From IMG/VR virus record IMGVR_UViG_2563366829_000021, positions 1 through 12,316 of that record: a stretch of DNA of 12,316 bases; one strand, written 5' to 3'. This document shows, in pieces, positions 1 to 12,316 of this stretch. The position numbers and the translations under genes are program-made. Every line of letters begins with the position of its first letter. Within the stretch, counting starts at the first letter, position 1. Source of the stretch: a virus (Duplodnaviria > Heunggongvirae > Uroviricota > Caudoviricetes). The notes beneath the pieces are model-generated. The model saw only the letters and a program-made list of their open reading frames with translations. It searched no databases and was not told the DNA's origin.

Positions 1-585
1 AAGCAGAAAAAGCTTATTATGCTTCCATCGGAAACGATGATCTGGCAGCCTGAGTTCACAGATAAAACACTCTCCAGGAAACCCGGGGCGGTTCACGTCG
101 ACGTGCTTACCAATCAGTTCGAGGTTCTTCACCTTGTCAGGCCATTTAATTTTTTTGAGGATTGTCTCTATCGAATCCTCGTTCATGTTCATGATGGTCG
201 ATGACAGATCAAAGCCGCTAAGCGTAGTGCGCCAGATTTTCGGCCACTCGCGGATTGGCTTAAGGCTCCCATCGTCGTTGAGGATGTCGATCACGTCCAT
301 CTGGTCGATCTCCACCAGGCGCATGAGAACGTAATCAGCACTGACGCGCATTCGTTTGTTGCGCTCCTCCATCAACTCGGCAATCCGTTTCTGAATGCGT
401 TCATCGCGCATCATGACACTGGCTTTAACTGCCGCTGTATTTGGGGAGAATCCTGCGTTAATCGCAGCCTGAGTCTGATTTTCAGGCGTTTTGATGTATG
501 ACTGGCAATAAGCCTCCTGCATTGCTGTTAGTGGCTTAAATTGCGTTGATTTGCGTTTATAGGTTTTAGGTTCAGCAGGCATCAT
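1..585 (-). CDS. Phage terminase small subunit (Terminase_2-like), partial: C-terminal end lies beyond the window start
   Basis: Manual minus-strand translation from the ATG at 585..583 runs with no stop to position 1 (MMPAEPKTYKRKSTQFKPLTAMQEAYCQSYIKTPENQTQAAINAGFSPNTAAVKASVMMRDERIQKRIAELMEERNKRMRVSADYVLMRLVEIDQ...). The Q-A-Y-C-Q-x-Y ... TQAAIxAG(F/Y)S ... RIQxRIAELxEER pattern matches terminase small subunit N-terminal HTH domains from memory. Absent from the ORF track because no stop lies in the window. GGTGG SD-like element 5-9 nt upstream. Confidence 0.7.
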   Translation of the reverse strand, partial: MMPAEPKTYKRKSTQFKPLTAMQEAYCQSYIKTPENQTQAAINAGFSPNTAAVKASVMMRDERIQKRIAELMEERNKRMRVSADYVLMRLVEIDQMDVIDILNDDGSLKPIREWPKIWRTTLSGFDLSSTIMNMNEDSIETILKKIKWPDKVKNLELIGKHVDVNRPGFPGECFICELRLPDHRFRWKHNKLFLL

Positions 586-592
586 AACCACC

Positions 593-624
593 GTGGTAAT
601 AGTTACCGTTGTGGTAATAGTACC
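593..624. repeat. Two direct copies of GTGGTAATAGT(T)ACC (593-607 and 611-624) in the leader of the terminase small-subunit gene
   Basis: Read directly from the sequence. Each copy is itself a near-palindrome (GGTAA-TAG-TTACC) and uses the same GGTAA/TTACC half-sites as the operator palindrome, but in inverted order. Confidence 0.45.
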
Positions 625-628
625 ATGC

Positions 629-654
629 AAAATAAAGCCGCCATAGTTGGCGGC
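629..654 (-). terminator. Rho-independent terminator for leftward (minus-strand) transcription, downstream of CDS 660..872
   Basis: Stem GCCGCC (637-642) / GGCGGC (649-654) with a 6-nt loop; on the minus-strand RNA it is followed by UUUAUUUUG. No U-tract in the plus orientation. Confidence 0.55.
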
Positions 655-659
655 AGTAT

Positions 660-872
660 TCAAAGTCCATCAAATTCATCGTAAAAACTCTCGTCAAGAT
701 ACCCTTTCCATTTACCGCGAATGAAAATTACATCCTCGCCGCAAGGGTGCTGACTGTCGATAACTATATCCCTCCTGGCGCAACCATACTTATGCATGAG
801 AAATTTAACCTCTTTCGGAAAATTAGCTGAGTTATCTCTCATATCTTCAAGGTCGTAGCGTATTTTTGGCAT
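660..872 (-). CDS. Hypothetical phage protein (70 aa)
   Basis: ORF-track ORF 660..893. Start placed at the internal ATG 872 (MPKIRYDLEDMRDN...) because a GAAGGTG SD-like sequence lies 5-10 nt upstream and the upstream gene stops at 890. Same strand as the operon. Confidence 0.5.
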   Translation of the reverse strand: MPKIRYDLEDMRDNSANFPKEVKFLMHKYGCARRDIVIDSQHPCGEDVIFIRGKWKGYLDESFYDEFDGL

Positions 873-889
873 AACACCTTCGTGACATG

Positions 890-1231
890 TCACACTATTA
901 ATTTCGTTTCATGCCAGCCTTTGGTCACCCAGCATTGCGAGTCACCATTACACGGGCATGAATTAACTGGAACTCTCTCGCCGCACTTACCGCAACGTTT
1001 TCTGCTGATCGATTTTATACGCCCGCGCACCCGGGCATCATCCTGGCGGATCAGCAGCGCGATGTACTCGGCCATTTCATAGGGATCTCGACCAGGGCGC
1101 CGGGCGGCGCAGTTCCGCTCCAGCATTTCAATTTCCTGAGCATCAAGCACAATCTCCAGCTTACGCACACCAGATGCAGCTTGTCTGGCTCTCTGAGCGG
1201 CTTTGCGCTCTGCTGCTGATTTAGCCATCAA
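890..1231 (-). CDS. Hypothetical small basic protein with C-terminal Cys cluster (CGKCG...CPCNG), possible zinc-binding
   Basis: 113-aa ORF, tandem ATG start at 1231/1228 with AGGT 8 nt upstream; overlaps the stop of the upstream gene (1221-1223). No family recognised. Confidence 0.5.
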   Translation of the reverse strand: MMAKSAAERKAAQRARQAASGVRKLEIVLDAQEIEMLERNCAARRPGRDPYEMAEYIALLIRQDDARVRGRIKSISRKRCGKCGERVPVNSCPCNGDSQCWVTKGWHETKLIV

Positions 1232-1502
1232 TATTTACCTTTATCGCGTATACCTTTACCGGTTTATCGCCGAAGTGGGGATGTGTGATTGTCTTGATTT
1301 CATATCCGTCATACGGGACGTCAATTCTACGACTGGAGTCGTCGCGCTTCGGATATCCCTTTGTGATAATCAGTCGGTCATAATCCCTGAACATAATTCG
1401 CTTATTCCAGTAGTCATTACACAGGCGATACTCTTCCGTTTTCTCTCCGCGAATGATGGCATCGAAGTATTCACCTTTAACGGCTAGTTGCAGGTTAGCC
1501 AC
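1221..1502 (-). CDS. ASCH/PUA-like domain phage protein (93 aa from a GTG start)
   Basis: Motif VKGEYFDAIIRGEKTEEYR resembles the ASCH-domain signature as I recall it. GTG start at 1502..1500 preceded by AGGAGG (1513-1508) with a 5-nt spacer. The longer ORF-track version (start 1631) would overlap the upstream gene by more than 100 nt. Confidence 0.5.
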   Translation of the reverse strand: MANLQLAVKGEYFDAIIRGEKTEEYRLCNDYWNKRIMFRDYDRLIITKGYPKRDDSSRRIDVPYDGYEIKTITHPHFGDKPVKVYAIKVNIDG

Positions 1503-2022
1503 GATTAACCTCCTGCTGCGGTGCTGCTGGCAGTGGCATCCAGTGGGTAATACTACCTGGATATAAACTCTTTGCTGGCCCCCAGTAGCCATCTGTATTA
1601 ACACGCATAACCTCACAGCCATCAAAACCATCAGTTACAAGAACGTATTCATAAGGTTCCGGCATCCTTTCGCTTACCGGAATCCAACCATCCGGAGTTG
1701 CCGGAGAGTTGCCATTTATATCGAAGTTTGGCTCTGCGTCCTGAACCAGGAGGATGTAACCATTCTTGGCAGTATCAAGTTCTAACGCCTCGGTGACGGT
1801 ACCGAAATAGCGATTACCTAAATCAGCATCACAAGTGCTTACATCAATGGAAACTTCCATCCCTTCGATTAATTCTGGCAAGTTGTAAGTTTGGCTTACA
1901 GGCTCTGCTTCCAGTGATGCCAGTGCAATTCGTGCCAGTTCCATTTGTTCGCCACGAGTAAGTCCGTTATCAAGCGGATTTTTAATGAATAATTCGATAC
2001 GTTCTTTGGTTATAGCGCTCAT
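1495..2022 (-). CDS. DUF551-family phage protein (175 aa)
   Basis: C-terminal W-I-P-V-S-E-R-M-P ... H-W-M-P-L-P pattern is typical of DUF551 as I recall it. ATG at 2022 with GGAGAG SD 8 nt upstream, 1 nt after the stop of the Ead-like gene. Confidence 0.6.
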   Translation of the reverse strand: MSAITKERIELFIKNPLDNGLTRGEQMELARIALASLEAEPVSQTYNLPELIEGMEVSIDVSTCDADLGNRYFGTVTEALELDTAKNGYILLVQDAEPNFDINGNSPATPDGWIPVSERMPEPYEYVLVTDGFDGCEVMRVNTDGYWGPAKSLYPGSITHWMPLPAAPQQEVNRG

Positions 2023-2023
2023 A

Positions 2024-2752
2024 TCACTCTCCTTTGATGCGAATGCCAGCGACGCGTGGCACATTAACTTCCACGATGCGCACAGTTGGTTTGTACATCT
2101 CAATCGCTGTCAGCCAGTCAGCGCCAGTCATGCGCTTTTCTGCATCGCCATTAGTCCACTTAACCGGTACACCAATAGCCTTCATCGCGATTTCTATTTC
2201 CCCGGCAATGGCGCTTTTTCCGCAACCAGTAAAACCAGAAACAACGACAAGAACTTCGCCTTTGGCTGGTTTTATTTCCCGCGCTTCCAGTTCTGCTATG
2301 CGCTTCTCTGATGCTTCAAGTAACGCCTGCTTATCGCGTAGCGCTTCTTCCAGTTCAGCAACATGGCACTCACTATCAATAAGGTTGTTCTCTGCGGCTT
2401 CCAGCTCAACACGCAGCTTCCCTACCGTTAGCGCAATATCCTCGTTCTCCTGATCGCGGCTTTTGATGTATTGCAGGTTTCTTTCCCGTTCATCCAGCAG
2501 TGCCAGCACGGTAGCTGGATTGGCTGCGGCGATGAATTCAGCATTGGCCTGCTGCTCCATTTGGAAATCTTCATAGAAACGGCTTTCTGGATGCGCTCCT
2601 TCAATTCTGCAAATGGGAATATATCCAGCAACTTCACGATGAATTAGTGCATCATCACCATCAAATCGGCCATCTCCATATTCGAGCGACCACTCGCCAC
2701 ACGTTGCTTTCTCTGCCGCCTCACGCAGTGCCTGATAGTCAATCTTGCTCAC
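2024..2752 (-). CDS. Ead/Ea22-like family protein (coiled-coil-rich, 242 aa)
   Basis: N-terminus MSKIDYQALREAAEKAT...GEW and a long Glu/Leu/Ala-rich coiled-coil segment resemble Ea22-like proteins of lambdoid prophages. GTG start at 2752 with AGGAGG 6 nt upstream; GTGA overlap with the upstream stop. Confidence 0.6.
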   Translation of the reverse strand: MSKIDYQALREAAEKATCGEWSLEYGDGRFDGDDALIHREVAGYIPICRIEGAHPESRFYEDFQMEQQANAEFIAAANPATVLALLDERERNLQYIKSRDQENEDIALTVGKLRVELEAAENNLIDSECHVAELEEALRDKQALLEASEKRIAELEAREIKPAKGEVLVVVSGFTGCGKSAIAGEIEIAMKAIGVPVKWTNGDAEKRMTGADWLTAIEMYKPTVRIVEVNVPRVAGIRIKGE

Positions 2753-3261
2753 TGGTTGCCTCCTTTGCGAAGCTGGGCGGCGATATCTTCGAGAACGCCA
2801 TCAGAGAATGAGCGGTCAAAATCGCCTTCCGGCGCATTAGCCATAAACTCAGTAGAGGTAAGAATCATCCGGGCAATATCCGCGGCGTTCTTCGCAGTAT
2901 CATCAATAAAACCAGCTTCCCAGGCAGCCAGCATTCTGTTCGCCACAAAGTAAGCGCCCTCCTTGCGTGCTTCAGTCTTCACTTCAGCCAGGAAAGCGTC
3001 GGTGGCTGGGGTTTCCGTGAAGTTGTCCTCCCAACCGTAGTACTCCTGACGACAGAAGTTATTAAATTCCTTCTCCGACTGTTTAAGCCCCGCATTCTCC
3101 GCCGCCAGCGCATTAGCACGCACCAGTTGCACTTCCAGTTGCGTTGCCAAATCGCTGATCAGCTTTGCCACACTGCGCATATCAACGGCACCACATTCTG
3201 CTTTCAGTTCCGAAGCCATCTCATGCCCGGCGGAAACTAACCCTTTGATATTACTTTCCAT
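2749..3261 (-). CDS. Hypothetical phage protein (170 aa)
   Basis: ORF with ATG at 3261 and AGGG SD 5 nt upstream; stop overlaps the start of the next gene. No family recognised. Confidence 0.55.
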   Translation of the reverse strand: MESNIKGLVSAGHEMASELKAECGAVDMRSVAKLISDLATQLEVQLVRANALAAENAGLKQSEKEFNNFCRQEYYGWEDNFTETPATDAFLAEVKTEARKEGAYFVANRMLAAWEAGFIDDTAKNAADIARMILTSTEFMANAPEGDFDRSFSDGVLEDIAAQLRKGGNQ

Positions 3262-3322
3262 CTTTACCCTCGCTTATCCACATAACTTATTGATTACATT
3301 GATAACTAAAAAGATCGTCGAT

Positions 3323-3667
3323 TTAGAACTCTTCGATGTTCCAGCCACCACCTGCTTTCTTTGGCTTAACCGTTACCCCGATGATTCGGAACGGATACTG
3401 ATCTGCGGCGACTTTGGTTTTCACCCTGGCGTCGTCGGTCCAGAAACCTTTCACTTCGTGCAGTTCCATCTCGCCGGTGGCGAGCATCACAGCGAAATCT
3501 GGCGTATAAAACGTGTTATCAGCTAACCGCAGCTTGATACCCTCGAACCGATACCAGGCGATTTCCCCTGCACGTTTACGCTGCTCAAGGTGCTGGCAAT
3601 ACGCAGATTCTGTTTTGTTCATCTGGCCTGTTTTGAGTCGACCAAGAGCCTGTATCTGTTTTCTCAT
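3323..3667 (-). CDS. DUF1064-like phage protein, possibly PD-(D/E)XK-fold nuclease
   Basis: 114-aa ORF; motif YTPDF...ELHEVKG...DDARVK is consistent with a D...E-x-K nuclease-like core and my recollection of DUF1064. ATG at 3667 sits directly downstream of a promoter-like element. Confidence 0.55.
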   Translation of the reverse strand: MRKQIQALGRLKTGQMNKTESAYCQHLEQRKRAGEIAWYRFEGIKLRLADNTFYTPDFAVMLATGEMELHEVKGFWTDDARVKTKVAADQYPFRIIGVTVKPKKAGGGWNIEEF

Positions 3668-3669
3668 GA

Positions 3670-3748
3670 TTTACCCCTGAGGTAATTAAAAACCACATAA
3701 GACACTAAATCAATAGATTTTAGAATATTTTATTACCCAGTAGGTAAT
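3670..3748 (-). promoter_or_regulatory. Internal promoter with two operator palindromes: ATTACC-CAGTA-GGTAAT (3732-3748) and TTTACC-CCTGA-GGTAAT (3670-3686) flanking a -35 TTGATT (plus 3708-3713) / 17 bp / -10 TTTAAT (plus 3685-3690), reading toward 3667
   Basis: Read from the minus strand: ATTACCTACTGGGTAAT-(18 nt)-TTGATT-(17 nt)-TTTAAT overlapping ATTACCTCAGGGGTAAA, then ATG. Same geometry as the PL-like promoter at 6768-6846. Confidence 0.5.
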
Positions 3749-3758
3749 CATCGAGACG

Positions 3759-3781
3759 TAAAAAAATGCGCTATCGCGCTG
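3759..3781 (-). terminator. Weak terminator-like element downstream of the P-like gene
   Basis: Short GC palindrome GCGC-GATA-GCGC on the minus-strand RNA followed by seven U. The stem is only 4-5 bp, so low confidence. Confidence 0.3.
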
Positions 3782-3784
3782 GTA

Positions 3785-4567
3785 TTACTTGATAAATCCT
3801 GCCGCCTTTCCCCGCCTGTATTCCTCCATCAGCCACTGCGCCGGTGTTATTCCCCCAAGGGTGGCGGCGTTAGGCATGCACCCGAAACTTCGCCCTGGTG
3901 GATGGTAAACGTCTCTCCCTGTGTCCGGAGGTGTACTCATGGGTTCTGGCTTTGCCTGTATGCTGATCACCGGATCGGGTATCTGCTGTCCGGAAGCCAC
4001 CTTTTTCGCCCAATCATCGAGCAGCCTGCGCGCGTGTTTCTCAACCTCAATCTCGCTAAGCTGGCGCTGATACATTGCACGGCGGGTATCACATACGACC
4101 CAGTACATAACCGGATGTCGCCACGGGAATCTTTCGGGACCACCAGGATATAAACTTTTTTCCTTGCTGTACCGGTGAAACTCCGCCATCACATCGTCAA
4201 TGGTGACGCCAAGAACCATCTTGCTGTCTTTGCACCACTTGATGAATTGCCCAGGCGACGGCCAGAACGGAGATTCACTGGCGCGGGCGTGGCGCATACC
4301 AGCGTTAACCTGTTCCATTGTTGTGATCCCATTCTCCAGAAACGCAAGCATCCATTGTTTTCGAAATTCGTTTAGCTTTCCTTGCTCGCTGATAGCAGCG
4401 ATGCTGCCTGGAAATGCAGCCTGTAACTGGACAAACATTTCGTTGAAAATTCTTGCAACCTGCTCCTTCTTTGCCCTTTCATCGTCAGCAGAAGCAACCG
4501 CCGTCGAGTGGTCATGCCCACCACGAAAGCGATCGTACTCATTAAGAAGTTCTGGAGTTGATTTCAT
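3785..4567 (-). CDS. Replication protein P-like (lambda P family, DnaB helicase loader)
   Basis: WMLAFLENGITTMEQVNAGMRHARASESPFWPSPGQFIKWC aligns almost residue-for-residue with the lambda P segment WVLAFRENGITTMEQVNAGMRVARRQNRPFLPSPGQFVAWC as I recall it. Start chosen at ATG 4567 (MKSTPELLNEYD, compare lambda MKNIAAQMVNFD) with GAGGTG SD upstream; overlaps the 3' end of the O-like gene. Confidence 0.8.
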   Translation of the reverse strand: MKSTPELLNEYDRFRGGHDHSTAVASADDERAKKEQVARIFNEMFVQLQAAFPGSIAAISEQGKLNEFRKQWMLAFLENGITTMEQVNAGMRHARASESPFWPSPGQFIKWCKDSKMVLGVTIDDVMAEFHRYSKEKSLYPGGPERFPWRHPVMYWVVCDTRRAMYQRQLSEIEVEKHARRLLDDWAKKVASGQQIPDPVISIQAKPEPMSTPPDTGRDVYHPPGRSFGCMPNAATLGGITPAQWLMEEYRRGKAAGFIK

Positions 4568-5375
4568 CCCACACCTCATCTATCCAGTCAGTGTTATGCC
4601 AGTCAAGGCTCTTTCTGACTTCACCTGATTTCTGTCTACAGAACTGGATGCGCCTTGCCAGCTTCTGCTCCCACTGTGCCTGATGGTATGCCTTACCCTC
4701 AGCCATCCAGTAAATTCTGAACTCTGCAAGTTCCTGTGCCGTTGGCAGACTGTCCAGGTAGATTCCCTGCAATGAGCTTTTCCGAAGAAAGTCATCTGAT
4801 GGCTGCCATTGTTCATGCATGACAAATTTACCTAATTGCCCTGGCCCACCAGGAGGAACAAAGTTATTCATCACGGCGTTGTTTGCGACGGGGTCATGAG
4901 GCACAGAATCCCCGGTTTTTGTCCTGCTCTCCCTCTCTTGGTTAAATGACTGGTTATATGACTGGTTCTGGATCCCGTTTTTGGGATCATTCAACATCCC
5001 GTTTTTGGGATCATTCAACATCCCGTTTTTGGGTATATTCCCGTTTTCGGTAACATTACCGTTTTCGGGTTCATTGCCCCCCTCCCGGTTGCCTTTAATG
5101 TTCCCGTTTTTGGTTATATTAAGAGAGAAAACCCGCACTCTTTTTGTCGCTCCCTTTCTCTCTCCGGTATCTGAAATAAGCCCCATTTTCATGAGCGATA
5201 TAAGCCCGGCCTGCACGGTTTTTTTATTCAGGCAAGTGTCTTTAACGAGGCGTTCTATGCTGGGGTAGCAGAGGTTATATTCATCGGCTCTGTCAGCCAT
5301 CGAGAGCAGTATGAGCTTTAATGATGAGCTACCTGGATCTGTCTCCCAGGCCCAATCTGTTGCATGTCTGCTCAT
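4542..5375 (-). CDS. Replication initiator, lambda-O-like: N-terminal winged-HTH DNA-binding domain, Asn/Gly-rich repeat linker, C-terminal domain
   Basis: 277-aa ORF directly upstream of the P-like gene. N-terminal LKLILLSMADRADEYNLCYPSIERLVKDTCLNKKTVQAGLISLMKMGLIS looks like a replication-initiator HTH. The central low-complexity linker is encoded by the tandem DNA repeats at 4973-5120. GGAG SD upstream of ATG 5375. Confidence 0.7.
   Translation of the reverse strand: MSRHATDWAWETDPGSSSLKLILLSMADRADEYNLCYPSIERLVKDTCLNKKTVQAGLISLMKMGLISDTGERKGATKRVRVFSLNITKNGNIKGNREGGNEPENGNVTENGNIPKNGMLNDPKNGMLNDPKNGIQNQSYNQSFNQERESRTKTGDSVPHDPVANNAVMNNFVPPGGPGQLGKFVMHEQWQPSDDFLRKSSLQGIYLDSLPTAQELAEFRIYWMAEGKAYHQAQWEQKLARRIQFCRQKSGEVRKSLDWHNTDWIDEVWDEINSRTS
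4973..5120. repeat. Iteron-like tandem repeat array inside the O-like gene (candidate origin of replication)
   Basis: Two exact 24-bp copies TCCCGTTTTTGGGATCATTCAACA (4973-4996, 4997-5020), then degenerate 18-bp units TCCCGTTTTTGGGTATAT, TCCCGTTTTCGGTAACAT, TACCGTTTTCGGGTTCAT and a further TTCCCGTTTTTGGTTATATT at 5101-5120. Each unit has a CCCG-T4/5-GGG dyad core. Confidence 0.6.
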
Positions 5376-5390
5376 GATTAATCTCCGCTA

Positions 5391-5591
5391 TCAGCTTGAG
5401 TGTTGTGGGGAGGAATTAATCATGATCTGCTTAATCTCTGCCCTGATGCGACGGTTTGATTCCATGGTGCACTCAGCACAGTGTCCGTTGTAAACCCAGC
5501 GTTCACTGTCATGTCCATGCTTACATGGTTTTCCGGTGTAGTAGCGTTTAAGTCCGCGCTTTGCGGCATCAATACGTGTAATGATTTCCAT
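5391..5591 (-). CDS. Small Cys/His-rich protein (C-K-H-G-H ... C-A-E-C), possible zinc-ribbon regulator at the cII-equivalent position
   Basis: ORF-track ORF 5391..5654; start uncertain (ATG at 5591 with AGGG 8 nt upstream preferred; 5627 and 5654 are alternatives that would run into the terminator region). No homolog recognised. Confidence 0.4.
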   Translation of the reverse strand: MEIITRIDAAKRGLKRYYTGKPCKHGHDSERWVYNGHCAECTMESNRRIRAEIKQIMINSSPQHSS

Positions 5592-5700
5592 GGTAAGCCC
5601 TGTTATTAGTATTGGGATTACGGTCATTTTGTGCTGACACAAAAAAAAGATCAACCAGATTTGGTTTTTTGTTACCTTTTAGGTGCGAATAGATATGAAA

Positions 5701-5720
5701 AGACCGCCGGATGGCGGTCT
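5701..5720 (-). terminator. Hairpin terminator immediately downstream of the Cro-like gene (tR1-like position)
   Basis: Perfect 8-bp stem AGACCGCC / GGCGGTCT with a 4-nt loop; minus-strand RNA continues UUUCAUAUCUAUU (interrupted U-tract). Confidence 0.5.
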
Positions 5721-5741
5721 ACAGAGGGTTGTGGCTGGATA

Positions 5742-5972
5742 TCATGAGTAGAAGAAGTATGCCAGTTCTGCTTTTGAGCGCAGCCATTGTCTTGTTTTAC
5801 AGGCTTTAAAAAGCCCATTCATCAATACCTTACCTGGCATTTTGCGCTTACCTGTTAAGTGAGTCTGGATATAGTGACTCGTCGTTCCGGCTTCCTGTGC
5901 GAAGGCTTCACGCTCATCCGGAGTAAGTGCAAGCCAGTGCTTTTTGAAATCGAAATGTCCGTTATCGCTCAT
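5742..5972 (-). CDS. Cro-like small DNA-binding regulator (76 aa)
   Basis: Divergent from the repressor across an operator-rich intergenic region; sequence LTPDEREAFAQEAGTTSHYIQTHLTGKRKMPGKVL looks like a short HTH protein. Position and orientation match cro. Confidence 0.55.
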   Translation of the reverse strand: MSDNGHFDFKKHWLALTPDEREAFAQEAGTTSHYIQTHLTGKRKMPGKVLMNGLFKACKTRQWLRSKAELAYFFYS

Positions 5973-6126
5973 AGCTATTGCCTGATATTTATTTCAGATA
6001 ATAAATATTCACCCATAAGGTAACAAAAATCAAGGATAGTTACCTATGGGGTGCATTTACCTGTTGGGTAATATTGCTTTAAATTGAATCATCTACTGAT
6101 TCATATATGAGGCGATTTTCCAGAAA
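5973..6126. promoter_or_regulatory. OR-like divergent promoter/operator region between the Cro-like and repressor genes
   Basis: Strong palindrome TTTACC-TGTTG-GGTAAT at 6056-6072; two degenerate mirror-image copies TCACC-CATAA-GGTAAC (6009-6024) and TTACC-TATGG-GGTGC (6040-6054) flanking a -35-like TTGATT (minus, plus coords 6028-6033). Candidate leftward -10 TATTAT (plus 5998-6003). Individual promoter hexamers are tentative. Confidence 0.6.
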
Positions 6127-6711
6127 ATGAAAAGTATCCAGGACGTCCGCAGGCAAAATCTCAACGACTTGATCGACCGTGAATTCAATGGTGTTCAGAC
6201 GCGGATGGCAGAAAAACTTGGAACTCAGGCAAATCTGGTAAACCGCTGGGCTCTTGGCAAGAAGGTTATCGGCGACCAGGTTGCGCGAAAAATTGAAGCT
6301 GCCGCCAATAAACCCCGTAACTGGCTTGATATCGATCGCTCGCTTTCTCAGGAAGGTTTTCAGCCTGTCGGCCCAAGCGACATTGGTCAGCTGGCGGCTC
6401 ACAACCTGGAACGCTGGATGAGCGAAAGCCGCGACCTTTCAACGCAGGGAAAACTTCACCGCGCATCCGGCGTCGCCCAGGTGACAATCAGTCGCCTGTT
6501 AAACAATGAGGTCAGCGTTTCCATTTCCACCCTGGAGAATGTTGCATCCGCATTCGGGCGTCACGGATATGAACTACTGATTCACCCGCACGACCCTGCG
6601 ACTATCAACTATGACCGCTCACGCTACGCATTGTTACCCGAAACCGAGAAAGCAAAGATCGAAAGTTACATTGAATTTGTCATCAACCAGAACGAAAAAA
6701 GCAAACAATAA
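6127..6711 (+). CDS. Prophage repressor (CI-equivalent) with two tandem XRE-type HTH domains and no recognisable S24 peptidase domain
   Basis: 194 aa. HTH-like segment 1 around residues 10-70 (NLNDLIDREFNGVQTRMAEKLGTQANLVNRWALGKKVIGDQVARKIEAAANKPRNWL); HTH-like segment 2 around residues 95-150 (LSTQGKLHRASGVAQVTISRLLNNEVSVSISTLENVASAFG). The C-terminus shows no LexA-type Ala-Gly/Ser/Lys pattern. Followed by a strong terminator. Confidence 0.7.
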   Translation: MKSIQDVRRQNLNDLIDREFNGVQTRMAEKLGTQANLVNRWALGKKVIGDQVARKIEAAANKPRNWLDIDRSLSQEGFQPVGPSDIGQLAAHNLERWMSESRDLSTQGKLHRASGVAQVTISRLLNNEVSVSISTLENVASAFGRHGYELLIHPHDPATINYDRSRYALLPETEKAKIESYIEFVINQNEKSKQ

Positions 6712-6731
6712 AACTATAGTTTTCAGTAAGT

Positions 6732-6757
6732 AAGCCGCCTCATGGCGGCTTTTTTAT
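6732..6757 (+). terminator. Rho-independent terminator after the repressor gene
   Basis: Stem AAGCCGCC (6732-6739) / GGCGGCTT (6744-6751) with loop TCAT, followed by TTTTTATT. No U-tract in the opposite orientation. Confidence 0.7.
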
Positions 6758-6767
6758 TGCCAGATAG

Positions 6768-6846
6768 ATTACCTTACGGGTAATTTTTTTAACTCATATC
6801 TATTGACACCAAACCAAATAAGCATAATTATTACCCCAACGGTAAC
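6768..6846 (+). promoter_or_regulatory. PL-like early promoter with two operator palindromes: ATTACC-TTACG-GGTAAT (6768-6784) and ATTACC-CCAAC-GGTAAC (6830-6846); -35 TTGACA (6803-6808), 17-bp spacer, -10 AATTAT (6826-6831)
   Basis: Consensus -35 hexamer; upstream operator centred about 30 bp upstream of the -35; downstream operator overlaps the last 2 nt of the -10 and the predicted start site. Confidence 0.6.
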
Positions 6847-6864
6847 AGACCGAGGTAACAAGTT

Positions 6865-7017
6865 ATGCAGTGGAAAATCATCAACGGTTGGTACTGCGTT
6901 ACTGCATGCGGATTCATGAGCTGGAAGTTCCGCACCTTACAGGAAGGCATTAAGTGGGCTTTCGTCAGCAAAGAAGCTCGCGATGTAGCCAACGATAACG
7001 AGATATGGGAGGGCTGA
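6865..7017 (+). CDS. Small hypothetical protein (50 aa), first ORF of the rightward early operon
   Basis: Not in the ORF track (under 60 aa). ATG 6865 with GAGG 9 nt upstream; translation MQWKIINGWYCVTACGFMSWKFRTLQEGIKWAFVSKEARDVANDNEIWEG; stop 2 nt before the next ATG. Not Arg-rich, so not obviously N-like. Confidence 0.4.
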   Translation: MQWKIINGWYCVTACGFMSWKFRTLQEGIKWAFVSKEARDVANDNEIWEG

Positions 7018-7019
7018 TA

Positions 7020-7319
7020 ATGAACGTTAATCAGCAGAAAAATCTTCAAAAAATCATGCTGGCATTCGACAAGGACTACCGCCTGTCAGAACAGCTATAT
7101 GACCGACAAGTTGAACTGATTGAGAGCATCCGACTTCATCAACTGTCCTCAACTTTCGACGTTGTAACAGGCAAAGGCGTTCGTCAGGAAGTGCTGGAGG
7201 CTGCTAAAGACAGCCCTGAGTTCGAAGAACTGATGGATGCCTACCGGCGCGAGGCAATGGCAATTATAGCGCGCTGGGATCTGGCGGATCAGCTTGATGG
7301 ACAGAGGGACGCGGCATGA
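7020..7319 (+). CDS. Hypothetical early protein (99 aa)
   Basis: Internal ATG 7020 preceded by GGGAGGG; ATGA stop/start overlap with the exonuclease gene. No family recognised. Confidence 0.55.
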   Translation: MNVNQQKNLQKIMLAFDKDYRLSEQLYDRQVELIESIRLHQLSSTFDVVTGKGVRQEVLEAAKDSPEFEELMDAYRREAMAIIARWDLADQLDGQRDAA

Positions 7320-8137
7320 AACCGGGAATTTATTTCGACATCAGCAACGAAGACTACCACGCCGGTGACGGCGTGAGTAAGTCGCAACTGGACATGGTTG
7401 CCAAGAATCCGGCGCTTCTTAAATGGGTTCAGGCAGCACCAGAAGACGAAGAGAAAAAGTCTGCACTGGATATGGGAACCGCATTGCACTGTCTGCTTCT
7501 GGAGCCTGGAGAATTCGACAAACGCTTCATTGTTTCACCGAAGTTCGATCGTCGGACGAAACAAGGTAAAGCTGACGAAGAAGCATTTCTTCGTGATGTA
7601 GCGGATATGGGGATTACGGTACTTGATGCCGAGCAGTGGCGGAAACTGGAGCTGATGCGTGATAGCGCAATGGCTCACCCGGCGGCACGCTGGATGCTGG
7701 AAGCACCTGGTTACTGCGAAGCATCAATGTACTGGAACGATGAAGAGACGGGTGAGTTGTGCCGAATTCGTCCAGACAAATGGCTGAACGAGCACAACGT
7801 GATCGTCGACGTGAAAAAGGTTGCAGATATGGACCGTTTTGCACGTCACATCGAGGAATTCCGCTACCACGTGCAGGACGCAATGTACCGCGAAGGCGCA
7901 ATGAGGGTTACTGGTCAGCCGCATGGTTTTTTCTTTCTTGCCGTGAGCGAAAGCATTGATTGTGGTCGGTATCCGGTACGCGTGTTCGGGCTGGATGCGC
8001 CGGATGTCGATGCCGGGCACGCTCTGTTCCGCCGGGATCTGAATACCTATCACGAATGCCGCATCAGCGATGAATGGGGCGGCGTGGAAATTATTAAACG
8101 CCCTGAGTGGGCACGCAAACAGGATATGTACGTATGA
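7316..8137 (+). CDS. PD-(D/E)XK-family exonuclease (RecB/Cas4-like core), recombination partner of RecT
   Basis: 273 aa. Motifs RIRPD ... IVDVKKV (D/E-x-K) and YHVQDAMY (QxxxY) are typical of RecB-family nuclease cores. Sits immediately upstream of, and translationally coupled (ATGA) to, a RecT/Bet gene. Confidence 0.7.
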   Translation: MKPGIYFDISNEDYHAGDGVSKSQLDMVAKNPALLKWVQAAPEDEEKKSALDMGTALHCLLLEPGEFDKRFIVSPKFDRRTKQGKADEEAFLRDVADMGITVLDAEQWRKLELMRDSAMAHPAARWMLEAPGYCEASMYWNDEETGELCRIRPDKWLNEHNVIVDVKKVADMDRFARHIEEFRYHVQDAMYREGAMRVTGQPHGFFFLAVSESIDCGRYPVRVFGLDAPDVDAGHALFRRDLNTYHECRISDEWGGVEIIKRPEWARKQDMYV

Positions 8138-9051
8138 GCAACGAAATTGCAATCACCAATGATGTGTTGGCTATTCGGGGAATCGATGAAGTTACATGGA
8201 GCGCTCTGAAAAACAGTATTTACCCTGGGGCAAAAGATGAATCGGTAATGATGGCAGTCGATTACTGCCGGGCGCGTCAACTCGATCCTCTTCTTAAGCC
8301 GGTACACCTGGTACCAATGAGTGTTAAAGACTCGAAGAGTGGAAAGAATGAATGGCGCGACGTGGTCATGCCTGGCATTGGACTTTATCGCATTCAGGCC
8401 TACCGTTCCGGCGATTACGCAGGCGCTAATGAACCTGAGTTCGGTCCAGATGTAACACAAACGCTTTCAGGCGTGGAGGTTACCTTCCCTCAGTGGTGTA
8501 AGTACACCGTCAGCAAGCGAATGGCAAGCGGGGAAATCGTAGAGTTTAGCGCCAAAGAATACTGGATTGAGAACTATGCAACTGGGGGGCGTGACACATC
8601 GGCACCAAATGCCATGTGGAAAAAGCGCCCTTATGCGCAGTTGGCAAAATGCGCAGAGGCACAGGCATTACGTAAAGCATGGCCGGAGATTGGTCAACAA
8701 GCCACAGCTGAGGAAATGGAAGGTAAATATATCGACTCACCTGACATTATTGAACGTGACGTAACTCCAAGAAGTCAGGCAAAGCACGGCACAGCATCCA
8801 GCATGAACAGTCTGATCAACGCTAAACCAGTGAAAAAGCATGATGAGCAAACGCGTAAAGCGGATAGCCGTGATCCAGAAGAAATGCTGATGGCCTTTAC
8901 CAGCGCAGCGATGAATTACAGCACTGTCTCCGAACTGGATAAGGCTTACAAATACATTGCACAAAAACTTTCAGATGATGACGAACTGCTGGCAAAAGCC
9001 ACCGACGTTTACAGCGTTCGTCGGGAAGAATTAAACGAAACATCTATGTAA
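8134..9051 (+). CDS. RecT/Bet-family single-strand annealing protein
   Basis: 305 aa from ATG 8134. Layout and segments (ALKNSIYPGAKDESVMMAVDYCRARQLDPLLKPVHLVP; WKKRPYAQLAKCAEAQALRKAWPE) parallel lambda Bet / RecT as I recall them. Confidence 0.8.
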   Translation: MSNEIAITNDVLAIRGIDEVTWSALKNSIYPGAKDESVMMAVDYCRARQLDPLLKPVHLVPMSVKDSKSGKNEWRDVVMPGIGLYRIQAYRSGDYAGANEPEFGPDVTQTLSGVEVTFPQWCKYTVSKRMASGEIVEFSAKEYWIENYATGGRDTSAPNAMWKKRPYAQLAKCAEAQALRKAWPEIGQQATAEEMEGKYIDSPDIIERDVTPRSQAKHGTASSMNSLINAKPVKKHDEQTRKADSRDPEEMLMAFTSAAMNYSTVSELDKAYKYIAQKLSDDDELLAKATDVYSVRREELNETSM

Positions 9052-9100
9052 CCACCACCGCGGCGCCACGCGCGCCGCACTGCAACCAAGAGAGGTATTT

Positions 9101-9349
9101 ATGAAAGGTGCATTAGGTAAGAAGGAACTCCTGGCGGTGGTGCCACTGTCATGGAGCACTATCGACCGTATGGAGCGCGCAGGGGAATTTCCTAAACGCT
9201 GGTATATCACCGATAAACGCTGCGCATGGAACCGTGACGAAGTTGAGCGTTGGCTTGATGAACGTCAGGCAGCAAGCCCGGCAGAGTTCCAGGGTAAAAA
9301 GCCTCCTGTTCAGCAACGTGTATATCGTCCTGTGAGCAACGCTGCATGA
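9101..9349 (+). CDS. AlpA-family phage transcriptional regulator / excisionase (Xis-like)
   Basis: 82 aa; LSWSTIDRMERAGEFPKRWYITDKRCAWNRDEVERWLDER matches the AlpA-type HTH pattern (STI-R...GEFPK...W...EVE.WL.ER). GAGG SD 5 nt upstream of the ATG. Confidence 0.75.
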   Translation: MKGALGKKELLAVVPLSWSTIDRMERAGEFPKRWYITDKRCAWNRDEVERWLDERQAASPAEFQGKKPPVQQRVYRPVSNAA

Positions 9350-9374
9350 GTGCGCTGCTAAGGCACTGGAGCAA

Positions 9375-9458
9375 ATGGTCAGGATGGTACTTATTCCTGG
9401 CCTCTGTTTCAGCATGGCTTTATCTGCTGGCATTAATTTTCAGAGAGGGTTGGATTAA
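9375..9458 (+). CDS. Possible 27-aa hydrophobic micro-peptide (MVRMVLIPGLCFSMALSAGINFQRGLD)
   Basis: Short ORF not in the track; GGAG 3-4 nt upstream of the ATG (short spacing); ends exactly where the next ORF starts. Speculative. Confidence 0.2.
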   Translation: MVRMVLIPGLCFSMALSAGINFQRGLD

Positions 9459-9758
9459 GTGAGAAAGTTAAGCCGACTTGAAAAATATCACATGAATAAG
9501 GTTTCAATGCGCAGTCCGTCAAAGATTGTCGCCGTTACTCCTGCGGCGATAGAGATCGAAAAACGCGCGATTGAAAGAGAGAAAAAAGGGCAATTCCGCA
9601 TTGCCGCTCACCTTTGGCTTCAGTGTATGGATGTTGCTTCTGGTGATGTTGAACGTGCAAGGATCGCGGTTCGCAGGGACCAATGTATCACAAAAGGTAA
9701 CGGCCTTCGCCGTGGCGACTATAGCGGCATAGGATGTTGTGGGGTGGTTTATGACTAA
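9459..9758 (+). CDS. Hypothetical protein (99 aa, GTG start)
   Basis: ORF co-oriented with the operon; GAGGG about 10 nt upstream of GTG 9459; 3' end overlaps the methyltransferase start by 8 nt. No family recognised. Confidence 0.4.
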   Translation: MRKLSRLEKYHMNKVSMRSPSKIVAVTPAAIEIEKRAIEREKKGQFRIAAHLWLQCMDVASGDVERARIAVRRDQCITKGNGLRRGDYSGIGCCGVVYD

Positions 9759-10401
9759 GAAATACACACTAATCTATGCAGATCCACCCTGGGTATACCG
9801 GGACAAAGCCGCAGATGGTAATCGCGGTGCCGGTTTTAAATATCCAGTTATGAGTGTGCTGGATATCTGCCGCCTTCCTGTGTGGGATTTTACCGCTGAA
9901 AACTGTCTGTTGGCCATGTGGTGGGTGCCAACACAACCACTCGAAGCACTAAAAGTTGTTGAAGCCTGGGTATTTCGTCTGATGACGATGAAGGGCTTCA
10001 CGTGGATAAAATGTGGTAGTCGACAACCAGATAAACTGGTTATGGGTATGGGACACATGACTCGCGCCAATAGTGAAGATTGCCTGTTTGCGGTAAAGGG
10101 AAAACTACCTACGCGCATTAATGCAGGGATCGTTCAGTCATTTACCGCACCGCGGCTTGAGCACTCAAGAAAACCAGATATCGTTCGTGAAAAACTTGTG
10201 CAATTGTTAGGCGATGTTTCTCGCATTGAACTGTTCGCCCGCCAGACGTCTCATGGCTTCGATGTTTGGGGTAATCAGTGCGAAGACCCGGCAGTGCAAC
10301 TACACCCTGGATACGCGTTGGATATTGGCGGATTAACAAATGCATTCAGCAATGCTCAGGTGTCACCAATAGACAACCAGGGGCGGGAGCGTGCAGCATG
10401 A
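9751..10401 (+). CDS. MT-A70-family DNA N6-adenine methyltransferase (DPPW motif), orphan
   Basis: N-terminal [14 protein letters not shown] contains the catalytic DPPW tetrad. Start at ATG 9751 (GTG 9739 is an in-frame alternative). Stop overlaps the phosphatase start (ATGA). No restriction endonuclease partner seen in the window. Confidence 0.8.
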
Positions 10402-11057
10402 ACCTATATCAACGCATCAATGGCGCTGACTGGTGCAATATCTTCGTCGTCGGCGATCTGCATGGGTGCTACACGCTGCTGATGAACGAACTCGACAAAG
10501 TTTCATTCGACCCGGCGCGCGATTTACTTATTTCCGTTGGTGACCTTGTTGACCGCGGCGCTGAAAACGTCGAATGCCTGGATTTGATTACTATGCCGTG
10601 GTTCCGAGCTGTTCGTGGCAACCATGAGCAGATGATGCTGGATGCACTGGTCAACGGCGGAAGTTTCGGACATTGGATGTCAAACGGCGGTGGATGGTGG
10701 CACCAACTTGATTCTGAGCAGGATGTGCAACTCAAATACCTTCTGCCAAAGATTACCAACCTCCCGATGATTATCGAACTGGTTACCGGCAATAAGAAGG
10801 TCGTCATCTGTCACGCAGACTACCCGCACAACGAATACGCATTCGATAAGCCAGTACCAGAAGAAATGGTGATATGGAATCGTGAGCGGGTTAGCGACGC
10901 GCAGGACGGTATTGTCTCGGAGATAACCGGTGCCGATTTGTTCATCTTCGGTCATACGCCAGCACATCACCCACTGGTGTATGCAAACCAGATGTACATC
11001 GACACCGGCGCAGTGTTCTGCGGAAATCTGACGCTTACCAAAGTCCAGGAAGGATAG
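10398..11057 (+). CDS. Ser/Thr protein phosphatase, lambda-PPase-like (calcineurin-like metallophosphoesterase)
   Basis: 219 aa from ATG 10398 with PPP-family motifs GDLHG, GDLVDRG, GNHE and a C-terminal GH. The ORF-track version carries an upstream extension that I reject. Confidence 0.85.
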
Positions 11058-11059
11058 AA

Positions 11060-12316
11060 TTATTTATTACTGTCTTCCATCCACCTCTCAAACTTCGACG
11101 GGGAGAACGGAATCAGATCCGTATGCTCCCCGTCAATCCATGAATCAATCATATCGGCCCACTGCTGCAACATGTAGGCGCGCTGTCTGGCGTATTCCGC
11201 TTTGTTATATACGGCGCGCACACCTTTCTGCTCATGTGCCAGAGCCTTTTCAATCCAGTCTGAAGGATAACCAGCCTCATGCAACAACGTACTGGCTGTA
11301 CGGCGCATATCGTGTACGGTGAAGCCCTGAATATGCTCACCATCTTCATTTATTATTTTCACCGTTCTGTCGATCAGAGAGTTCAGCGCGGCATTAGATA
11401 ATGGCTTCCGGAAATTGTAACGACCAGGAACCAGATATTCACTTCCACCAGCGCACATCTGCAACCCAACCAATATATCCTGTGCCTGTTTAGGCAGGTA
11501 AATAACGTGCGCCCGGCTTCCCTTCATGCGGTCTGAAGGAATTGTCCATGTCCATTTTTTAAAATCTATTTCATCCCACGTTGCATTGGTGAATTCGCCT
11601 TTACGAACCATAGTGATAAGCACCAGCTTTAAAGCCATTTTCATAGTGCCCATAGCACCAATGGCATCCAGCGTGCGGAAGAACAGGCCAATTTCTTCTG
11701 GTGTCAGTGTTCGCTCTCGTGGTTTAAATATGGCGATAGACGAAGGTTTAATGTCAGCCGCAGGATTAAACAAACCATGACCACGGTCATTGGCGTGACG
11801 GTATACGCTGCTGATGCTCTCCCTGGCCTGTACTGCTGTTGCCCGACCACCGCGTTCGACAATCCGGTCACACAAATCACGAACCATCGATGTGGTAATT
11901 TCAGCCATCATTTTGTTACCAAGAACAGGAAGTATGTCACGGTCGATCACCGCCTGCTTCATTGCGCGGGTACTGTCAGCCAGGATGACGTGTTTCATAT
12001 AACTGTCGGTATGTACCGCAAACGTCTCGGCACCACGAATCTTTTTGATACCGTCACGTTTAGCCGCAGCCGGTGACTGGCCTGCTTTAAGCAGCTTCTT
12101 TGCAGCAATCAGTTCTTCTCGCGCTTCTGCCAGGCTGATACCGTCACGCCCATACTGCCCGATTACCAGTGTTTCGCGGCGACCGTTGATACGGTAGTCA
12201 TAGCGAAACGAGACCGTGCCTGACGTAAGCACAGCTACATACAGCCCGTCACGATCGGAGACCTTGTACAGTTTGTCCTGCGGCTTGAGGTTTTTTAATT
12301 TTGTATCGGTAAGCAC
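11060..12316 (-). CDS. Tyrosine recombinase / phage integrase, P4-like family with N-terminal DUF4102 arm-binding domain; first codon (GTG) sits at the window edge
   Basis: 418 aa. N-terminal LTDTKLKNLKPQDKLYKVSDRDGLYVAVLTSG is typical of P4-like integrases; C-terminal catalytic region includes HDMRRT and LAHEQKGVRAVY (candidate catalytic Tyr). Convergent with the phosphatase gene with a 2-nt gap. Confidence 0.9.
   Translation of the reverse strand: MLTDTKLKNLKPQDKLYKVSDRDGLYVAVLTSGTVSFRYDYRINGRRETLVIGQYGRDGISLAEAREELIAAKKLLKAGQSPAAAKRDGIKKIRGAETFAVHTDSYMKHVILADSTRAMKQAVIDRDILPVLGNKMMAEITTSMVRDLCDRIVERGGRATAVQARESISSVYRHANDRGHGLFNPAADIKPSSIAIFKPRERTLTPEEIGLFFRTLDAIGAMGTMKMALKLVLITMVRKGEFTNATWDEIDFKKWTWTIPSDRMKGSRAHVIYLPKQAQDILVGLQMCAGGSEYLVPGRYNFRKPLSNAALNSLIDRTVKIINEDGEHIQGFTVHDMRRTASTLLHEAGYPSDWIEKALAHEQKGVRAVYNKAEYARQRAYMLQQWADMIDSWIDGEHTDLIPFSPSKFERWMEDSNK

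Follow-up and report, generated by a model that had tools for sequence, protein, structure and literature searches.

Phages of the epsilon15/phiV10 type (Uetakevirus) carry a run of genes next to int whose order is kept throughout the genus: an AlpA gene, a 38-codon gene, a PerC gene, a methyltransferase gene, one short variable gene and then int itself, which is convergent with the others. Some members of the genus have additional genes between PerC and the methyltransferase. The closest methyltransferase to have been characterised is M.EcoPA8orf6770P of Stx phages, reported to be a partner-dependent 16S rRNA methyltransferase that is weak on DNA when alone (Gong et al., NAR 2024, PMC10810198). 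The enzyme forms a 1:1 complex with PNB-2, to which the rRNA targeting is ascribed and in which it prefers 30S/16S rRNA; its C-terminal tail is proposed to matter in PNB-2 binding, and it raises spontaneous induction (PMC10810198). The study did not at any point map which base of the rRNA is modified (PMC10810198). The Stx-phage homologue is reported to be transcribed in lysogens, from a stationary-phase promoter (PMC10810198). M.EcoGV, a close relative, is listed as a GATC enzyme (PMC6602927), and GATC specificity has been reported upon overproduction (PMC10810198; PMC6602927). A second relevant system is the NinI phosphatase of lambda, whose gene sits in the nin region (ninE to ninG) and is non-essential (PMC10695390).

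The window analysed here, a stretch of 12,316 nucleotides, is by sequence comparison 100% identical to a prophage that adjoins guaA in E. coli MS 196-1, and on this basis is part of an epsilon15/phiV10-type temperate phage integrated by guaA in E. coli. Phages PAS61 (vB_EcoP_PAS61) and BP9 match the window at 98.6% identity with the same gene annotation, and the five genes that precede int are also present in a 38.7-kb circular episome, 'pNADC1036guaAphage'. The early-left regions of phiV10 (NC_007804, genes p36-p31) and epsilon15 (gp33-gp27) agree with that of the window in gene order and in their 4-nt overlaps. The differences lie at particular positions. Where the window has a gene for a 219-aa phosphatase, phiV10 has a 64-aa DUF1382 gene; 5' of the methyltransferase, epsilon15 has a short remnant ORF and Tyrion a DUF1317 gene and a winged-helix gene, unlike the window; and the last operon genes of epsilon15 and Tyrion also differ from that of the window. 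All of the window's operon genes have existing annotations (RefSeq genomes; phages phiV10 and PAS61) and all come from described families, so that the region matters little as a discovery and is ordinary apart from the phosphatase in its last slot.

We consider it highly probable that the region is the promoter-distal end of a single early-left operon (about 6.83-11.06 kb), containing an orphan methyltransferase and a swapped-in phosphatase. Directly 3' of the repressor gene (6127-6711) lies an intrinsic-terminator-like hairpin (6732-6751, + strand), with an 8-bp stem containing 6 GC pairs followed by a TTTTTATT T-run; phiV10 has an annotated terminator at the equivalent position, and the hairpin would set repressor transcription apart from the downstream operon. 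The control region that follows (6768-6846, + strand) has a sigma-70-like promoter, TTGACA-17-AATTAT, at 6803-6831, flanked by palindromes of the ATTACC-N5-GGTAAT type at 6768-6784 and 6830-6846. These palindromes match the annotated repressor operators of epsilon15, and the layout is alike. In a scan with simple consensus patterns, which is blind to weak or sigma-S promoters and which found fewer promoter-like sites than in shuffled sequence, this is the sole promoter-like site on the + strand in 6000-12316, and neither a promoter-like nor a terminator-like site was detected on the + strand in 6831-11057.

Transcription of the operon most likely starts at 6803-6831, between the two operator-like palindromes. 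The transcript would pass two small genes, an exonuclease gene and a RecT gene before reaching five coupled genes, which encode an AlpA-type excisionase, a 38-aa membrane peptide, a PerC-family protein, an MT-A70 methyltransferase and a NinI-type phosphatase. The operon would then end tail-to-tail with int (11060-12316, - strand), which encodes a P4-type tyrosine integrase (Pfam Arm-DNA-bind_3, Phage_int_M and Phage_integrase) and whose stop lies 2 nt from that of the phosphatase. Considering the position of the promoter, the operon genes would be off in a stable lysogen and expressed early upon infection or induction. Lacking promoter-like and terminator-like sites of their own, and with the sole promoter-like site located between operator-like palindromes, they look like early lytic genes rather than autonomous morons. 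In view of the stationary-phase promoter reported for the Stx-phage homologue (PMC10810198), the window may nevertheless have an internal promoter. An Rfam scan of the window gave no family that reaches threshold, and one candidate for a structured RNA, a GC hairpin at 9060-9078, was discarded since its stability does not exceed that of shuffled sequence (z -1.6).

How far upstream does the coupled block extend? The preliminary description placed four closely packed genes downstream of the AlpA-type gene, beginning with a 27-aa micro-ORF at 9375-9458. The packing holds at 9751-9758, where the overlap is ATGACTAA, and at 10398-10401, where it is ATGA. The micro-ORF, however, is in the wrong frame, and the real small gene is 9346-9462 (+ strand), encoding a single-pass membrane peptide of 38 aa with a hydrophobic stretch at residues 14-32. 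This peptide is matched in full (residues 1-38 of 38) by phrog_17484, 'membrane protein' (E 2.6e-27), and has orthologues of equal length in epsilon15 (gp32) and Tyrion (gp33). Substitutions between the window and either phage favour third codon positions in its frame (9-10/14). In the frame of the micro-ORF, by comparison, substitutions between phages fall on the first codon position and give 1-2 synonymous versus 8-10 non-synonymous codon changes; its ATG is a GTG in Tyrion, its stop is lost in epsilon15, and it matches no family in profile searches. The 38-aa gene shares nucleotides with both neighbours: its start with the stop of the AlpA gene (ATGA, 9346-9349), its stop with the GTG start of the next, PerC-family gene (GTGA, 9459-9462). 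With overlaps on both sides of this gene, the coupled block comprises five genes (9101-11057) and not four from 9375. The overlaps along the block thus read ATGA, GTGA, ATGACTAA and ATGA, with GA/GG-rich stretches 5' of the starts, and ATGA-type overlaps occur at matching junctions in epsilon15, Tyrion and phiV10; the five genes would therefore be expected to be translationally coupled. The first of them (9101-9349, + strand) encodes an AlpA-family excisionase/regulator of 82 aa, which scores 24.2 bits against Pfam Phage_AlpA (cut-off 21) and matches phrog_66, 'excisionase and transcriptional regulator', at E 2e-16.

The third gene (9459-9758, + strand, GTG start) encodes a 99-aa protein that had been described as having no recognised family. 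A profile search places it in the PerC family (PF06069), at 30.1 bits against a gathering score of 22.6 and over profile positions 5-50 of 90 only, while phrog_868 matches residues 1-99 of 99 with an E of 5.7e-62. The reading frame itself stands: an alignment of 41 sequences is conserved over the whole 99 aa, and epsilon15 and Tyrion have an ATG at the exact position of the window's GTG, with N-terminal residues in common. In view of that ATG and of the 41-sequence conservation, the 83-aa version called by PGAP in MS 196-1 is probably too short. What the comparison contributes at this end of the block is a corrected frame for the small gene and a restored start for the PerC-family gene, which automatic annotation has shortened or omitted. 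An AF2 model of the 99-aa protein has 4 helices (pLDDT 73) and no recognisable DNA-binding fold; in Foldseek against the PDB the best hits of this model were MIT/TPR-like three-helix bundles at an E of only 0.28, so that the fold gives no lead on function. The PerC/Pch family (PF06069) of EPEC and EHEC consists of small activators, and the window protein is likewise small and, in the model, helical; PerC/Pch-type activation of LEE1/ler is nevertheless an unlikely role for it in a phage operon. A match to the NCBIfam ANR family was sub-threshold (23.6 versus 32 bits).

The methyltransferase gene (9751-10401, + strand, 216 aa) was correctly recognised in the preliminary description as an orphan of the MT-A70 family. 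The protein scores 73.6 bits against Pfam MT-A70 (PF05063; cut-off 23.9), with residues 5-176 covering profile positions 1-172 of 172, and its motif YADPPWVY has DPPW at residues 11-14, aligned with the DPPW of Tetrahymena MTA1. MTA1 and METTL3 are its nearest solved structures. No nuclease partner is annotated in the flanks, the gene being bordered by those of the PerC-family protein and the phosphatase; the enzyme is thus an orphan and not a type II restriction-modification system. Judging from these features, it would be a catalytically intact, nuclease-less N6-adenine enzyme. A relationship to the non-specific adenine methyltransferase M.EcoGII was rejected, since M.EcoGII is a 349-aa DPPY enzyme of the beta class and not MT-A70 (PMC5778455).

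The substrate of the enzyme is likely to be either GATC in DNA, as for Dam, or ribosomal RNA. Over residues 1-187 it is 82% identical to enzymes of the M.EcoPA8orf6770P type (those of ArgO145 and of the Stx2a phage), and the Stx-phage locus is also near int, at the end of the early operon, with a methyltransferase start that overlaps the upstream gene. DUF1382 follows the methyltransferase in Stx phages, as it does in phiV10. Perhaps the window's enzyme acts mainly on 16S rRNA, tuning translation and spontaneous prophage induction by analogy with the Stx-phage enzyme, whose core it shares with DPPW intact and whose effects on induction and preference for 30S/16S rRNA in the presence of PNB-2 are described above. 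We regard this as possible, though on the unlikely side. The rRNA targeting is ascribed to PNB-2, a 143-aa winged-helix protein encoded immediately upstream in Stx phages, whereas the upstream gene in the window is of the PerC family; a tblastn search of the window with PNB-2 found nothing, and the PerC-family protein, considered as a PNB-2 analogue, has no BLAST similarity to it. Moreover, the tail of the window's enzyme (residues 188-216) is unrelated to that of the Stx-phage enzyme, and this is the region proposed for PNB-2 binding (PMC10810198). The argument by analogy is also weakened by the lack of a mapped rRNA base in the Stx-phage work. The number of GATC sites in the window (41, observed/expected 0.64) says nothing on Dam-like specificity. 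Of the complete E. coli genomes about 10% carry the methyltransferase, and the comparison links it to an enzyme with a disputed substrate, rRNA or GATC.

The last gene of the operon (10398-11057, + strand, 219 aa) encodes a Ser/Thr protein phosphatase of the lambda NinI type (PPP family), as had been supposed from its sequence. Its alignment with lambda-PP (PDB 1G5B) is ungapped over residues 1-217, with 67% identity and an E of 9e-100. All nine active-site residues checked against lambda-PP are kept (D20, H22, D49, R53, N75, H76, H139, R162 and H186), the GDxHG, GDxVDRG and GNHE motifs and the distal His ligands are present, and the protein matches Pfam Metallophos (58.7 bits) and phrog_246. 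It would accordingly be expected to act as an intact Mn-type phospho-Ser/Thr/Tyr hydrolase. Residues 81-136 are only 45% identical to lambda-PP and to a lambdoid NinI, while those two share 70% there. With the ORFs of the PerC-family protein and the methyltransferase, this is one of three larger genes in the preliminary description that exist as described and are also annotated in RefSeq and phage records.

The position of the phosphatase gene differs from that of lambda ninI: instead of the nin region it occupies the end of the early-left operon next to int, after the methyltransferase gene. The difference is one of location and leaves the family assignment by sequence untouched. Among relatives from nine other species (at most 79% identity), seven have NinE and/or NinG as a neighbour; for two relatives, L017 and L020, no nin neighbour was detected in 3-kb flanks. 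The arrangement in the nin regions of the relatives is YbcN-NinE-phosphatase-NinG. The gene is best explained as having come from a lambdoid nin region. A chromosomal prpA copy was considered as well and rejected, the 78.8% DNA match in K-12 lab strains being a lambdoid ninI in its nin region.

The arrival of this gene is seen most clearly by comparison with phiV10. In blastn the two are 98.6% identical up to 10403 and from 11077 on, with no homology between, so that a 673-bp cassette (10404-11076) replaces 203 bp of phiV10 that include DUF1382. The cassette starts right after an ATGAAC that both phages have and reaches 17 nt into the 3' end of int; the two integrases are 98.8% identical save for their last few residues. 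A phosphatase gene from a nin region would thus appear to have recombined into the last operon slot, displacing DUF1382. Among 5426 complete E. coli genomes, 537 have the methyltransferase, 373 of them with the DUF1382 allele at the ATGAAC junction and about 143-146 with the phosphatase allele. The phosphatase allele of PAS61 and BP9 is identical to that of the window. These natural alleles, one with the phosphatase and one with DUF1382, already provide an isogenic comparison in which to study the role of a lambda-type phosphatase in a phage.

A different view of the last two genes is that they are a counter-defence cargo or moron pair, in which the methyltransferase protects phage DNA against restriction, kinase-based defence signalling of the host is undone by the phosphatase, and the ATGA overlap ensures their stoichiometric co-expression. 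Early expression would fit such a role, and the methyltransferase, which has no nuclease partner, matches the PADLOC model for type II methyltransferases (MTase_II, E 3e-76). It is, however, the only one of the five proteins scanned with a PADLOC match, and to generic type II methyltransferase models; the phosphatase has none, and literature searches on NinI-type phosphatases in counter-defence found no paper linking them to defence evasion. The inference of a functional pair from the overlap does not survive the genome counts: in about 69% of sister prophages it is DUF1382 that is joined to the methyltransferase at this junction, which makes the pairing of methyltransferase and phosphatase incidental. 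Generic anti-restriction is likewise not the best-supported role for the methyltransferase. Considering that the closest studied enzyme is reported to act on 16S rRNA with a partner, and is otherwise weak on DNA or specific for GATC, an activity that host Dam already supplies (PMC10810198; PMC6602927), broad anti-restriction should not be assumed by default, and the enzyme is an unlikely source of a new restriction-blocking motif. The suggestion of a moron or defence hotspot next to int can be kept in part. The slot before int does vary among related phages (in epsilon15 it holds a gene annotated as serotype-conversion), and the phosphatase resembles a moron in being an accessory gene in a variable slot adjoining int. 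It differs from the classical moron in that promoter-like and terminator-like sites of its own are absent, that it begins inside the upstream gene and that it ends 2 nt away from the int stop. On balance we find the counter-defence pair unlikely, while an anti-kinase role of the phosphatase taken by itself is neither favoured nor disfavoured by the results; the phosphatase is better explained as an exchangeable accessory gene, which would be a neighbour of the methyltransferase by cassette exchange and not its partner.

A role for the phosphatase in lysogenic conversion, in which the prophage would express it and host phospho-signalling would be altered as by the chromosomal PrpA and PrpB, is improbable: the allele is intact at an identity of at least 99% in 138 genome records, and its scores come near the PrpA and PrpB equivalog cut-offs (NCBIfam NF008516, 266 versus 326 bits; NF007425, 221.6 versus 332 bits), but both fall below them, no promoter-like site was found upstream, the gene begins within the one before it, the promoter of the operon has operator-like palindromes on both sides, and the nearest relatives are nin-region genes of phages and not chromosomal prpA or prpB.

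Finally, the early-left operon may leave room for a long shot concerning the fourth gene of its coupled block, namely that the MT-A70 methyltransferase is a bare catalytic core whose target is set by the small protein encoded just upstream, overlapping its start. The upstream protein is PNB-2 (winged helix) in Stx phages, a winged-helix protein in Tyrion, a DndB-family protein in 21 E. coli prophages and a PerC-family protein in the window and phiV10. If this were true, the PerC-family protein would be a specificity subunit of the methyltransferase and not a transcription activator, and the window's enzyme might act on something that is neither GATC nor 16S rRNA. An obligate pair is argued against by epsilon15 and Tyrion, in which PerC stays after the 38-aa gene even when separated from the methyltransferase. 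The PerC subfamily found in the window is confined to Uetakevirus-like phages and prophages of Enterobacterales.

Over 9050-11100 the sequence matches the E. coli MS 196-1 chromosome at 100% identity and Escherichia phages vB_EcoP_PAS61 and BP9 at 98.6%. In MS 196-1 the element adjoins guaA, and its genes include those for portal, terminase, replication, repressor, recombination and integrase functions; the relatives phiV10, epsilon15 and Tyrion belong to the genus Uetakevirus. Moreover, in one E. coli assembly the same element is a 38.7-kb circular replicon, pNADC1036guaAphage (NZ_CP076267.1), which carries the same gene block of AlpA, PerC, methyltransferase, phosphatase and int; its assembly as a free circle suggests that the phage with the phosphatase allele excises. 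Sequence identity, gene content, named relatives and the circular replicon together establish the window as a known temperate phage, with the gene block at its integrase end. Public records already annotate every part, and each falls in a described family. The end of the early operon of a Uetakevirus-type prophage is probably the right explanation of identity and organization; confidence is lower for substrates.

A preliminary description had proposed a four-ORF cargo operon, and the ORFs at 9459-9758 (99 aa, GTG start), 9751-10401 (216 aa) and 10398-11057 (219 aa) are indeed present, with the junctions as described, ATGACTAA at 9751-9758 and ATGA at 10398-10401. The remaining one, a 27-aa micro-ORF at 9375-9458, is not supported. 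Family searches with it matched nothing, its start is GTG in Tyrion, its stop is gone in epsilon15, and substitutions from phage to phage hit the first position of its codons and are nearly all non-synonymous. It lies in the wrong frame relative to a conserved 38-aa gene at 9346-9462, which aligns from end to end with phrog_17484 ('membrane protein', E 2.6e-27), is equally long in epsilon15 and Tyrion, shows substitutions that favor the third codon position, and encodes hydrophobic residues at 14-32. The start of this gene overlaps the stop of the AlpA-type excisionase/regulator gene (9101-9349, assigned from profile matches) in ATGA, and its own stop shares GTGA with the start that follows, so that five genes, 9101-11057, are chained by overlaps. 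The RefSeq annotation of MS 196-1, where the sequence is identical (12300-12458 of that locus, L001, corresponds to window 9346-9506), is missing the 38-aa gene and shortens the PerC-family gene by 16 codons at its start, to 83 aa; the full 99 aa are annotated in other records.

Crude scans of the + strand from 6000 to 12316 found one promoter-like site, TTGACA-17-AATTAT at 6803-6831, directly after a strong terminator-like hairpin 3' of the repressor gene, and no terminator-like site on that strand from there to the end of the phosphatase gene. This early-left promoter is flanked by the palindromes ATTACCTTACGGGTAAT (6768-6784) and ATTACCCCAACGGTAAC (6830-6846), the same layout as that of the annotated operators of epsilon15. 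Both these and a third palindrome at 6056-6072, which lies in the divergent control region ahead of the repressor gene, are of the ATTACC-N5-GGTAAT type and match the epsilon15 repressor operators. Between 6865 and 11057 the only break in a run of overlapping or abutting genes is a 49-nt gap before alpA, and 2 nt separate the phosphatase stop from that of the convergent int. The whole block would be expressed from a single repressor-controlled early transcript with coupled translation. The recT-alpA gap, the sole intergenic gap of the operon, contains a 7-bp all-GC hairpin (GCGGCGC-N5-GCGCCGC, 9060-9078), and in epsilon15 a stem-loop at the matching position is annotated as a transcriptional pause; the window hairpin has no T-run and a stability not above that of shuffled sequence (z -1.6).

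The 99-aa protein, for which no family had been recognized, belongs to the PerC family by profile search (PF06069, 30.1 bits versus a cut-off of 22.6) and matches phrog_868 over its full length, with close homologs confined to Enterobacterales phages and prophages of the Uetakevirus-like kind. Its structure model has four helices and gave no significant match to solved folds. Comparison with relatives supports its GTG start at 9459: epsilon15 and Tyrion both begin with ATG there, the residues after it are conserved, and a 41-sequence alignment shows conservation along the whole protein.

The methyltransferase (9751-10401) matches the full MT-A70 profile (73.6 bits), with DPPW at residues 11-14, and its ATG at 9751 is consistent with orthologs. 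It was correctly called an orphan, because it has no nuclease neighbor. Among solved structures it comes closest to the ciliate DNA methyltransferase MTA1 and human METTL3. By tblastn, its residues 1-187 share 82% identity with an MT-A70 enzyme carried by Stx-converting phages, from which it differs in the C-terminal tail (188-216); these phages include PA2, in which the gene is interrupted by IS629. The Stx-phage MT-A70 enzyme studied by Gong, Chakraborty and Koudelka, M.EcoPA8orf6770P, is weakly active on DNA by itself and forms a 1:1 complex with the upstream gene product, PNB-2, that prefers 16S rRNA in 30S subunits; its effect on virulence requires an intact DPPW motif, and it increases spontaneous prophage induction (PMC10810198). 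Its close relative M.EcoGV methylates GATC in vivo when overproduced (PMC10810198) and is listed as a Dam homolog with GATC specificity (PMC6602927). The most that can be said is that the window enzyme is intact and that the known activities of its family are Dam-like GATC methylation or rRNA methylation. An rRNA methyltransferase is a possible reading, but the window holds no homolog of the partner PNB-2, and the upstream protein, PerC, is not similar to it.

The phosphatase (10398-11057) aligns ungapped with lambda phosphatase (1G5B) over residues 1-217 (67% identity, E 9e-100), all nine active-site residues checked are conserved, and ATG 10398 agrees with orthologs and with residue 1 of the lambda protein. 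The relatives nearest to it in other species, none above 79% identity, sit between ninE and ninG in lambdoid nin regions, so the gene is a relocated ninI; lambda ninI is non-essential and without known role (PMC10695390). The flanks of the protein are ~90% identical to one lambdoid NinI, and the center, residues 81-136 (window 10638-10805), is only 45% identical to lambda-PP and to this lambdoid NinI, which share 70% identity with each other there. The segment is either mosaic in origin or a surface that evolves fast and may take part in substrate recognition.

The last slot before int is subject to allele replacement. The window shows ~98.6% homology to phiV10 up to 10403, resuming at 11077, and its intervening 673 bp stand in place of 203 bp encoding a DUF1382 protein in phiV10. 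Both alleles have an identical ATGAAC start overlapping the methyltransferase stop, and the swap extends 17 nt into int, altering the last int residues. Among 5426 complete E. coli genomes, 537 have the methyltransferase, 373 the DUF1382 allele and about 143-146 the phosphatase allele. Epsilon15 and Tyrion have other short genes in this slot, that of epsilon15 being annotated as a serotype-conversion function. The phosphatase might itself serve lysogenic conversion, but the scan found no promoter-like site of its own. The proposal that methyltransferase and phosphatase act together as a counter-defense pair is weakened, since the methyltransferase is usually coupled to DUF1382 rather than to the phosphatase, the promoter and terminator scans found no autonomous regulatory signals, what is known of the closest methyltransferase's activity does not amount to broad anti-restriction, and a literature search gave nothing connecting NinI-type phosphatases with defense evasion. 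A new motif with broad restriction protection would not be the best-supported expectation for the methyltransferase.

The PerC/methyltransferase junction is a second variable point, empty in the window and phiV10. A remnant ORF occupies it in epsilon15, and a DUF1317 gene plus a winged-helix gene in Tyrion; in 21 of the 5426 genomes, a 355-aa DndB-family (DGQHR) gene lies between the PerC and MT-A70 genes of the same prophage, its stop overlapping the methyltransferase start (for example, 2934-4645 of the E. coli FDAARGOS_1285 locus, equivalent to window 9751-9758). Stx phages have the winged-helix gene for PNB-2 directly upstream of the methyltransferase, and Tyrion another, gp30; given these and the DndB-family gene, the gene at this position is often that of a nucleic-acid-binding protein. 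The methyltransferase start ATGACTAA aligns exactly with the ATGACTAA starts of the DUF1317 gene in Tyrion and the remnant gp30 in epsilon15 (compared at L004 4699 and L005 4708, the loci of these two relatives), and a deletion between two ATGAC start contexts appears to have removed the intervening genes from the E. coli lineage, with the PerC overlap retained. It is very improbable that the MT-A70 core takes its target from the overlapping gene upstream, here PerC, because PerC stays in place even where further genes lie between it and the methyltransferase.

The whole window (1-12316) contains a single CTAG where 8.5 would be expected, enterobacterial DNA being usually CTAG-depleted, and GGCC occurs at 0.47 of expectation.
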